64,000 nucleotides of DNA, taken from positions 1 to 64,000 of IMG/VR virus record IMGVR_UViG_3300022752_000023; one strand, 5' to 3'. Source of the stretch: a virus. A program made the position numbers and the translations under genes. Positions 32,304 through 33,245 of this stretch are shown here, piece by piece (position 1 is the first letter of the stretch; every line of letters starts with the position of its first letter). Under the pieces are notes generated by a model. The model had not been told where the DNA came from. It worked only from the letters and a program-made list of their open reading frames with translations, and did not search any database.

Positions 32304-33245
32304 TCACGGCTGCTTCTTGCTCATATGCTCTGCGTACGCTGCGCGCTCAGTCGGCGTCTTGAAAAACATGTTAGGCGCGAACAACCCGTCTTTCGCACCA
32401 CGACGCATCTCAAGACCATCAAGCCAGTTGTACCGCAAATAACGCACAAACGCCTGCGAGGCGCGCAGATCACCTTTAGTGCCGCCGCGGACGGCTTTGT
32501 GAATGCGGTATAAAAAGTTTGCCGGATTTTGCAGATCAACTTCCGCCGGGTCGACAGTTTTCCACGCACGTAAAACATTTGCGCAGCGCAGTTCTCGACT
32601 TTTGTGTAGCAAGCGCGTAGGCGTAGATACGTACTCCTGCACTTGTGGCGTTAAGCCTAAAAACAGTTCGAGCTTTGCCGCCCGGTCGGGTGCTTTTCGG
32701 TCAACGTACCAGCGCGGATCAACAATAGTAGCCAGTAGCTGCGCCGCGACCTCTTCGGACAACGTCGGTATGAACATCAGCGCCTTGTGCGCCGGGTGCA
32801 TACGAAAATACGTTTTTGCCGCGTCGTCAAAAACGAAGTTTGCTCGCTGCAGCCGACCGAGCATGGCGTACGTCGGATAGTCGTGCACGGAGAGTTTGTG
32901 CCACCCGCCGGCCGCCGGCGCAACGTCTACGCTGCGCATCCGGCGCAGCACAATCTGCGGGTCATAAATGTCGTCTGCCGTGTGTAAAATATTCGGCCCG
33001 GCCACCTCGACGCGATTGATCTCGTTTTTGTAATGCCGCAGATACAGCGCAGAAATTAGCTCTGCGTTTTGCGGCAAACCCAGCACACGAACCTGCACAC
33101 CCATGCCATTAAGAACCGGAGAAAGTAAAAACGAATCTAACAGCTGATCAGAGTTTGTTGCCGGGCCGATGCCGACTGAAAACCAGATCCGCCCATCTGT
33201 GTGCGTGTGCAGTTTGATTACGTTTTCATCAACTACGCTGTACAT
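32304..33245 (-). CDS. IS110/Nop-domain (Tas-like) protein
   Basis: HPAHKALMFIPTLSEEVAAQLLATIVDPRWY...KLELFLGLTP and RASQAFVRYLRYNW resemble the IS110 C-terminal/Nop helices. Confidence 0.6.
   Translation of the reverse strand: MYSVVDENVIKLHTHTDGRIWFSVGIGPATNSDQLLDSFLLSPVLNGMGVQVRVLGLPQNAELISALYLRHYKNEINRVEVAGPNILHTADDIYDPQIVLRRMRSVDVAPAAGGWHKLSVHDYPTYAMLGRLQRANFVFDDAAKTYFRMHPAHKALMFIPTLSEEVAAQLLATIVDPRWYVDRKAPDRAAKLELFLGLTPQVQEYVSTPTRLLHKSRELRCANVLRAWKTVDPAEVDLQNPANFLYRIHKAVRGGTKGDLRASQAFVRYLRYNWLDGLEMRRGAKDGLFAPNMFFKTPTERAAYAEHMSKKQP

Follow-up and report, generated by a model that had tools for sequence, protein, structure and literature searches.

We report here that the gene at positions 32304-33245 (minus strand) of a 64,000-nucleotide stretch of viral DNA encodes a 313-residue protein related to the TIGR-associated TasR proteins. 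This stretch, hereafter the window, makes up the initial 64 kb of one 144,420-bp IMG/VR virus contig (IMGVR_UViG_3300022752_000023) with a CheckV completeness of ~71%; relatives are 193-205 kb long. Judging from structural models and comparative genomics, we propose, at about even confidence, that this Tas-like protein is a domesticated, nuclease-dead relative of the compact TasRs, which would act as a non-cutting nucleic-acid binder and a fixed subunit of a phage replication/recombination operon, and which probably still holds RNA. An earlier note, made from the DNA letters and their translations, had described an IS110/Nop-domain (Tas-like) protein at this position; the gene proved to be real and strongly conserved. 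It is an open reading frame (ORF) running from ATG to TGA, and all of the genes around it lie on the same strand.

The AlphaFold2 model of the Tas-like protein, built from a 35-sequence alignment, reached a pLDDT of 87.3 and a pTM of 0.87. Foldseek search against the PDB returned IS621, ISCro4 and TIGR-TasR for all of the top ten matches (E 3e-3 to 9e-3, probability 0.97-1.0), followed by rows with a probability below 0.2. A Foldseek-independent aligner placed TasR (PDB 9MTY) first, with a Z-score of 10.7 over 223 residues that span residues 8 to 301 of the model. The same aligner matched TasH to the C-terminal half (9W03, Z 8.4, residues 127-308; 21KL, Z 8.1, residues 128-295) and also found the IS110 recombinases IS621 (Z 7.4-8.0) and ISCro4 (Z 6.3-7.0). 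The similarity thus goes beyond a generic helix-hairpin-helix (HhH) to a structural match of the Nop/IS110 type. Nop5 itself was absent among the listed structural matches of the model, and the best match among the BFVD viral models had an E-value of only 0.05 by Foldseek.

The model consists of two domains connected by a short linker. The N-terminal domain (residues 1-112; 32910..33245, minus strand) by itself matches RuvX/YqgF, RuvC, resolvases of poxviruses and chloroplasts, and the RuvC parts of Cas12, TnpB and Cas9 at Z 5-7, consistent with its β1-β2-β3-α-β4-α-β5 order. It is predicted to be a dead RuvC/RNase H-like domain: the idea of an inactivated RuvC fold, raised in the earlier note, agrees with these matches and with the lack of a conserved acidic tetrad. 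The linker region (residues 113-160; 32766..32909, minus strand) takes the place of the coiled coil of Tas and IS110 proteins; it contains the helices 123-134 and 141-149 and the near-invariant residues G113, W115, H116, D122, Y126, H150 and P151. The C-terminal domain (residues 161-313; 32307..32765, minus strand) is predicted to be helical and of the Nop/IS110 type, with the TasH matches and the conserved residues D176, P177, R178, W179, G197, R247 and E300.

Remote sequence similarity points in the same direction. The only NCBIfam matches of the Tas-like protein are TIGR_Tas_endo (NF052498, E 0.019) and transpos_IS110 (NF033542, E 0.074), both over residues 131-202, and both below threshold, with 14.9 bits against a curated cut-off of 100 bits and 12.2 bits against 140, respectively; the TIGR_Tas_endo match corresponds to window positions 32640-32855. 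We extended the comparison to a conservation panel of 95 diverse relatives of 30-59% identity. TIGR_Tas_endo matches 60 of these (best E 2.1e-9, all far under the cut-off), always at about residues 120-225 and profile positions 40-138 of 215, whereas the IS110 model matches only three. As the Tas model is favored over the IS110 model, it is specifically to the Tas proteins that the family is remotely related in sequence. The C-terminal IS110 Tnp/Tas motif recognized in the earlier note is accordingly judged to be beyond chance, because the sole NCBIfam matches are Tas and IS110 models on that same segment and the Tas model recurs among the relatives. Neither Pfam nor PHROGs gave a match to the protein. 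The IS110 model PF01548 and, at E≤1, the Nop model PF01798 match neither the protein nor the 95 relatives, and PF02371 matches a single relative (E 0.028) and not the protein itself. Searches of PDB sequences with phmmer and profiles yielded nothing, nor did tblastn against 50,697 phage records. A DUF4123 call by ESM Atlas (0.92) was discarded, as it has no alignment or fold support and falls within the false-positive range stated for the tool.

The protein family is large and under selection. By word-indexed search we obtained 324 relatives; almost all are 311-318 residues long, and all are unannotated, on contigs of at most 213 kb. Exhaustive phmmer search of 1.84 billion representatives, clustered at 50% identity, gave at least 752 clusters at E≤1e-3, including 571 with E≤1e-10; among the 150 relative clusters listed, most are ~300-340 residues long and a few are shorter fragments. 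At a protein identity of 50-60%, alignment pairs with the same amino acid share the codon in only 41% of cases; the synonymous sites are therefore well diverged, which indicates purifying selection. In 35 close relatives the C-terminal motif is near-invariant (FIPT..AA.LL..I.DPRW...KLELFLGLTP, then GDLRASQAF.RYLRYNWL), including the final RA...F helix that the earlier note had pointed out. At least 90% of the 95 relatives keep W21, R53, G56, N60, P84, G113, W115, H116, Y126, H150, P151 and F158, the motif core D176, P177, R178, W179 and G197 together with P186, and W228, P241, F244, R247, L260, W274, F289, P291 and E300. Conservation in the family peaks in the segment assigned to the Nop domain, which also bears the similarity to Tas.

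Residue conservation argues against an intact RuvC active site. Among the 95 relatives, no set of Asp or Glu residues is conserved at β1, after β4 or after β5, in line with the statement of the earlier note that the N-terminal half shows no clear DEDD motif. Position 11 in β1 is Lys or Arg in 84 of 95 (88%), N60 after β4 is kept in 88 (93%) and R104 is Arg in 73 (77%); E80 is Glu in only 59. Position 207 after GLxP, the possible equivalent of the IS110 catalytic serine, is Ser in only 23 of 95, so that this serine is not conserved. Two TasRs found dead by experiment carry changes of a similar kind, CsTasR with R8 and V126 and PateTasR with R91 plugging the pocket, and both still bind DNA via RNA guides (Xu et al., bioRxiv 10.64898/2026.09.09.750476). 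A kept RuvC-like fold with non-conserved acids is equally a property of these accepted dead TasRs, and is hence no criterion of membership. The N-terminal half is thus predicted to be a RuvC/RNase H-like fold whose acidic active site has been replaced, and the fold and the non-conserved catalytic residues support the non-catalytic binder or scaffold suggested earlier.

An alternative is that the protein is still an enzyme, namely a nuclease, resolvase or RNA-processing protein with a non-canonical site drawn from H13, H116, D122, Y126, H150, D176, E300 and H307. Several such His, Asp, Tyr and Glu residues are kept in 74-99% of the 95 relatives, and dual-repeat Tas proteins use a Tyr/His dyad close to the C-terminus to process their own RNA independently of metal. 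However, none of the candidate residues sits at a canonical RuvC position, the β1 position, like that of CsTasR, which is proven to be dead, is basic, and the IS110 serine is not conserved. A C-terminal Tyr/His dyad is not credible here: 31 of 95 members have Phe in place of Tyr304, so that this residue more likely serves in packing. We consider an enzymatic function very improbable.

A further difference from known Tas and IS110 proteins concerns dimerization. The longest helix in the model has 24 residues, and only helices of 12 and 9 residues lie between the two domains, from which the dimerizing coiled coil is predicted to be missing or vestigial. Compared to TaTasR (PDB 9MTY; PMC12045711), the Tas-like protein has a similar length and the same combination of a RuvC-like N-terminal and a Nop-type C-terminal domain, at a sequence identity of ~9%; TaTasR possesses an active RuvC domain, dimerizes through a coiled coil and is accompanied by a dual-repeat TIGR array with 36-nt guides, none of which was found here. 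The dead stem-loop TasRs (PateTasR and CsTasR) and TasA are similar in that they keep the RuvC fold with the acids changed to basic or neutral residues, and are non-cleaving DNA binders. They retain the coiled-coil dimer and arrays of stem-loop tigRNAs, occur mainly in Candidate Phyla Radiation (CPR) bacteria and act as transcriptional repressors, whereas the Tas-like gene belongs to the replication operon of a phage, and no array was found with it.

A close counterpart is a divergent, array-less clade of tas genes reported by Xu et al., which is characterized by a compact TasR, no coiled coil, no detectable array and dense viral genomes. The Tas-like protein shows all four traits, as far as a comparison by description goes, and most likely belongs to this array-less compact TasR branch. 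Xu et al. left the function of the branch open and called its guide source "an open question"; their text makes zero mention of a RAMP/Cas7 neighbor, SbcCD/Rad50 or a replication context. A full-text literature search for TasR with Cas7 and phage gave no title or abstract on such a pairing. It appears, then, that the protein clade had already been sighted, and that the operon context and the Cas7-like partner are the additions made here.

The IS110 recombinases (IS621, 8WT6/8WT9; ISCro4, 9T56) have the same domain order as the Tas-like protein (Foldseek E 3e-3, probability 0.99; VIA Z 7-8 over 227-241 residues) and share the motif IP..AA.LL..I.D..RF/W...L..GL.P. By contrast, the Tas-like protein has neither a conserved DEDD nor a conserved catalytic Ser, its gene has no flank for a bridge RNA, and it is single-copy and non-mobile. 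Another comparison is Nop5, in which a dead RuvC-like N-terminal domain and a Nop domain form a non-catalytic, RNA-dependent housekeeping scaffold (PMC12045711); by analogy, Nop5 may be the closest guide to how the Tas-like protein works. It differs from Nop5, Nop56/58 and Prp31 in having no PF01798 match, and no fibrillarin or L7Ae partner was seen, although no systematic search was made for one.

The Tas-like gene is embedded in a compact operon. The first 17 nt of the gene overlap the 3' end of the SbcC-like gene, GGAG precedes the ATG by 8 nt, and the TGA is separated by 1 nt from the ATG of a 165-residue gene, p165. The Tas-like gene is thus translationally coupled to SbcC and p165, and the overlap on one side and the abutting gene on the other therefore leave no non-coding flank for an insertion-sequence end, a bridge RNA or an array. 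Together with the single genomic copy, this upholds the absence of a transposon context stated in the earlier note. Upstream are the SbcC/Rad50-like ATPase (33229..35382, minus strand; Pfam SMC_N, AAA_23 and SbcC_Walker_B; PHROG 77) and the SbcD/Mre11-like phosphoesterase (35324..36496, minus strand; Pfam Metallophos; PHROG 100). Downstream of p165 is a superfamily 2 (SF2) helicase of the ResIII/Helicase_C type (29248..31911, minus strand; Pfam and PHROG matches), which is interrupted by an intein.

This arrangement is conserved across the relatives. In 39 of 39 IMG/VR loci, down to 48% identity, the order is p204, SbcD, SbcC, Tas-like, p165, SF2 helicase, p291, DnaB-like and primase; the downstream module contains a PolA fused to a uracil-DNA-glycosylase (UDG)-like domain and, further on, a RecA-like gene. 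At ~31% identity, relatives of the Tas-like gene still have an SMC_N ATPase on one side and a ResIII helicase on the other. We also compiled 79 SbcC-anchored loci, down to 23% SbcC identity, in which SbcC is followed by the Tas-like gene, the RAMP gene p165 and the helicase (61 loci), by the Tas-like gene and the helicase without the RAMP gene (7), by the RAMP gene and the helicase without the Tas-like gene (1, L118), by the helicase alone (7), or by none of the three (3). In 68 of the 79 loci, then, the Tas-like gene occupies the place between SbcC and the SF2 helicase, and wherever it is present SbcC is always upstream and the helicase is always the downstream partner. In loci without the Tas-like gene, non-orthologous replacement was rejected as an explanation, the slot being filled by unrelated genes (Mre11, NAD synthase or Band 7) or by nothing.

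Across the loci, the identity of the Tas-like protein co-varies with that of SbcC (rho 0.92), the helicase (0.86) and the RAMP (0.92), and the source genome has one copy of each of the four genes. A fixed slot, co-divergence and a single copy form the pattern of a vertical operon member: the Tas-like gene is a vertically inherited member of this operon and not a mobile or defense gene, and the earlier description as a core phage gene is borne out. This pattern bears on a second alternative, that of array-less RNA-guided DNA targeting, in which the protein, with or without the Cas7-like protein, silences genes or competing elements in the manner of dead TasR or TasA, using a guide from a single RNA gene elsewhere, from a phage or host transcript, or with a motif too degenerate to be recognized. 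Dead-RuvC TasR and TasA are RNA-guided transcriptional repressors, ~29% of the genome is missing, the tigRNA box C/D motifs of 2-3 nt are easily overlooked (PMC12045711), and Xu et al. leave open "an alternative guide RNA source" for the compact TasR branch. Defense and competition systems, however, are normally patchy, mobile and fast-evolving, whereas the Tas-like gene is fixed in one replication-operon slot, co-diverges with SbcC and the helicase, and retains 55-60% identity across the clade. Moreover, Tas proteins target DNA as coiled-coil dimers (PMC12045711), the model shows no coiled coil, and no array was found near the Tas-like gene in ~130 loci. We therefore regard targeting of this kind as unlikely.

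The neighbor p165 (31805..32302, minus strand), which begins 1 nt past the Tas-like stop codon, appears to be a stand-alone Cas7-type RAMP of 165 residues. Its AlphaFold2 model (pLDDT 77.6) has hardly any structural matches other than Cas7-type RAMPs, among them Csm3 (VIA Z 11.1 over 144 of 165 residues, and 9.8), a Cmr4-like protein (10.2), type VII Cas7 (9.4) and gRAMP (9.0), with 125-155 of 165 residues aligned overall. Foldseek returned 44 matches at E≤1e-3, all Cas7-type (Csm3, Cas7-11, type VII or Cmr), and by this modeling p165 has a Cas7-type RAMP fold. It follows the Tas-like gene in 61 of the 68 loci that bear the latter, and its median identity across loci is 70%, compared to 55% for the Tas-like protein. 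A complex prediction of the two proteins scored 0.00 in a run without controls and was used neither for nor against binding. The Vipr proteins (2026) are minimal stand-alone phage RAMPs that polymerize on RNAs with GGY/NN repeats, the VIPR vrRNA having 9-16 YNNGG repeats. p165 has the Cas7 RAMP fold in common with VIPR and the CRISPR RAMP systems, but neither a GGYNN tract nor a CRISPR array was found here.

On the basis of these models, we favor a mechanism in which a dead RuvC-like domain is joined, without a dimerizing coiled coil, to a nucleic-acid-binding domain of the Nop/IS110 type. The protein would have left a life as a mobile element or in array-based targeting and become a subunit of the operon SSB-like(?)-SbcD-SbcC-Tas-like-RAMP-SF2 helicase-...-DnaB-primase-PolA. 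It would bind nucleic acid without cleavage, its conserved Nop-type surface probably still holding RNA or an RNA:DNA hybrid, in many cases jointly with the Cas7-like RAMP. In so doing it could mark or stabilize DNA sites or intermediates, such as R-loops, ends and branches, for the SbcCD nuclease and the SF2 helicase, which are co-translated with it, in the service of recombination-dependent replication. The T4 UvsW protein, a helicase of the ResIII/Helicase_C kind, acts on R-loops and branched DNA and may serve as an analogy. We infer the RNA binding, the partnership with the RAMP, SbcCD and helicase, and the process served.

That the protein still holds RNA or an RNA:DNA hybrid is, on balance, the more likely case. 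RNA holding is favored because the best-kept block is the Nop-type segment common with Tas, because the protein is usually paired with a second fold that holds guide RNA, the RAMP, and because all characterized dead TasRs stay RNA-dependent. The term RNA-guided in the earlier note goes further, and we infer it only from the fold and the Cas7-like neighbor.

A number of observations weigh against the preferred reading, above all that no RNA partner of the Tas-like protein was found in scans of the contig and the related loci. The absence of a visible TIGR array was confirmed by TRF in the window and in the whole 144-kb contig. A scan of the contig for periodic 7-mers (at least four times, 28-80-nt spacing) found only a 54-nt coding repeat, with zero occurrences in ten shuffles, and no array was found by a 6-mer scan and relaxed TRF in 49 related loci (585 kb). 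As for the VIPR vrRNA signature, the contig has no tract of five or more GGYNN units and the 49 loci none of six or more. Excess synonymous constraint was found neither in the Tas-like gene nor at the SbcC 3' end; a peak of synonymous conservation in the last part of p165 falls where this gene overlaps the helicase ORF. Promoter- and terminator-like sites between 25.5 and 39 kb occur at chance level only, and the Rfam matches, all of them away from the Tas-like gene, are tRNAs, a group I intron and one DUF3800-VIII motif. TIGR arrays are built of units, either dual-repeat or stem-loop, that each contain two spacers of 8-12 nt. The box C/D motifs of tigRNA are only 2-3 nt long (PMC12045711), so that single degenerate units are easily missed; as the contig is ~71% complete, an RNA gene could also sit in the missing part. 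Furthermore, the seven loci of 68 without the RAMP gene and L118, which has the RAMP gene without the Tas-like gene, indicate that partnership between the two is not obligatory. In some distant phages SbcC is followed by the helicase with neither gene in between, SbcC directly abutting the helicase in four of the helicase-only loci, and the replication module can thus work without both. Lastly, all functional statements on the Tas-like protein are model-based.

A third alternative is an RNA-free structural DNA binder, an accessory of SbcCD or the helicase that has lost RNA binding and recognizes ends, forks or Holliday junctions, with the dead RuvC-like domain and an HhH-like segment as the proposed readers of DNA shape. 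The N-terminal domain resembles the junction-binding RuvX/YqgF/RuvC and the poxvirus or chloroplast resolvases, and the YqgF-plus-HhH arrangements of Tex and Spt6 match the model at Z 6-7. In addition, no guide RNA of a known type was found, the gene begins inside SbcC at nearly every locus, and 7 of 68 loci do without the RAMP. The most conserved part, however, is the Nop-type domain, which holds box C/D-like RNA motifs in Tas, IS110 and box C/D proteins (PMC12045711); the usual neighbor is a Cas7-type RAMP, a fold known to line guide RNA, and all characterized dead-RuvC TasRs are RNA-guided. An RNA-free binder is possible, in our view, but rather improbable.

Several candidate guide sources were rejected. 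The insertions between the Tas-like gene and p165 in three loci (L020, L026 and L027) contain small ORFs and no arrays, and a 605-nt "gap" at 78213-78817 reads as coding sequence. A 216-nt element directly after tRNA-Thr (L051 7980-8195, minus strand; genome 71980-72195) has a tRNA-like acceptor stem and T arm around a long insert, and folds no better than shuffles (z -1.0). Other RNA and repeat features were also recorded. The DUF3800-VIII small RNA motif (RF03075) lies at L051 17213-17288 (minus strand; genome 81213-81288), with 44.8 bits against a gathering score of 40.2. The group I catalytic intron at 61753-62535 (minus strand) matches the full-length Rfam model RF00028 with 67 bits. The contig starts (1-227) with a perfect 54-nt tandem repeat of 3.4 copies that is G+C-rich, has a 108-nt higher-order unit and keeps an open frame; it looks like the Gly-rich coding repeat of a fiber-type protein. 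The sole repeat in the 49-locus scan is an in-frame 21-nt tandem repeat of 16.8 copies (87% matches) at L048 11906-12257, in a 255-residue gene after the helicase of a distant relative.

The replication/recombination block has further features of its own. The intein of the SF2 helicase, of the LAGLIDADG/Hint type and ~340 residues long (Pfam LAGLIDADG_3, Hom_end and Hom_end_hint), is absent from the ~548-residue orthologues of L001-L016, whereas L017, L021 and L026 also have an insertion. PolA (22611-25772, minus strand; 1053 residues) consists of an N-terminal domain of the uracil-DNA-glycosylase superfamily, a 3'-5' exonuclease domain and a family A DNA polymerase, and the UDG-PolA fusion is also found in distant relatives. 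The p204 gene (36506-37120, minus strand), upstream of SbcD at a position conserved in most loci, encodes a protein without a family match whose long acidic Asp/Glu/Tyr tail recalls SSB C-termini. Beside the RecA-like gene, a 462-residue protein (19738-21126, minus strand) carries the N-terminal domain of a GmrSD_N (DUF262-type) restriction endonuclease. In distant relatives (L043 859-1053; L047 1553-1765), a CsrA-family gene precedes the SbcCD block by a few kb. The source phage has no close cultured relative, its SbcC and PolA reaching only 23-29% identity.

To our knowledge, every characterized member of the Nop/IS110/Tas group uses a dedicated guide RNA, be it for transposition, DNA targeting or RNA modification. 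In the present family, a Nop/IS110/Tas fold without catalytic residues, dimerizing coil or array is a fixed housekeeping gene in a very large clade of uncultured ~200-kb phages (at least 752 clusters at 50% identity), and in most of them a minimal Cas7-like protein accompanies it. The family is thus relevant to the question left open by the TIGR-Tas authors of whether array-less compact TasRs are guided by another RNA source. One specific version, which we consider quite doubtful, is that the Tas-like protein assembles with the RAMP into a ribonucleoprotein that needs no array, uses a phage transcript or a single non-array RNA, opens or recognizes specific DNA, and hands it to Mre11-Rad50 and the helicase; its DNA targets would be R-loops at origins or recombination intermediates. 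If this were true, RNA-guided DNA recognition would have been recruited for viral replication and recombination rather than for defense or transposition. Altogether, the family would represent either a new route of guide supply tied to Mre11-Rad50 and a helicase, or the exaptation of an RNA-guided fold for DNA metabolism.

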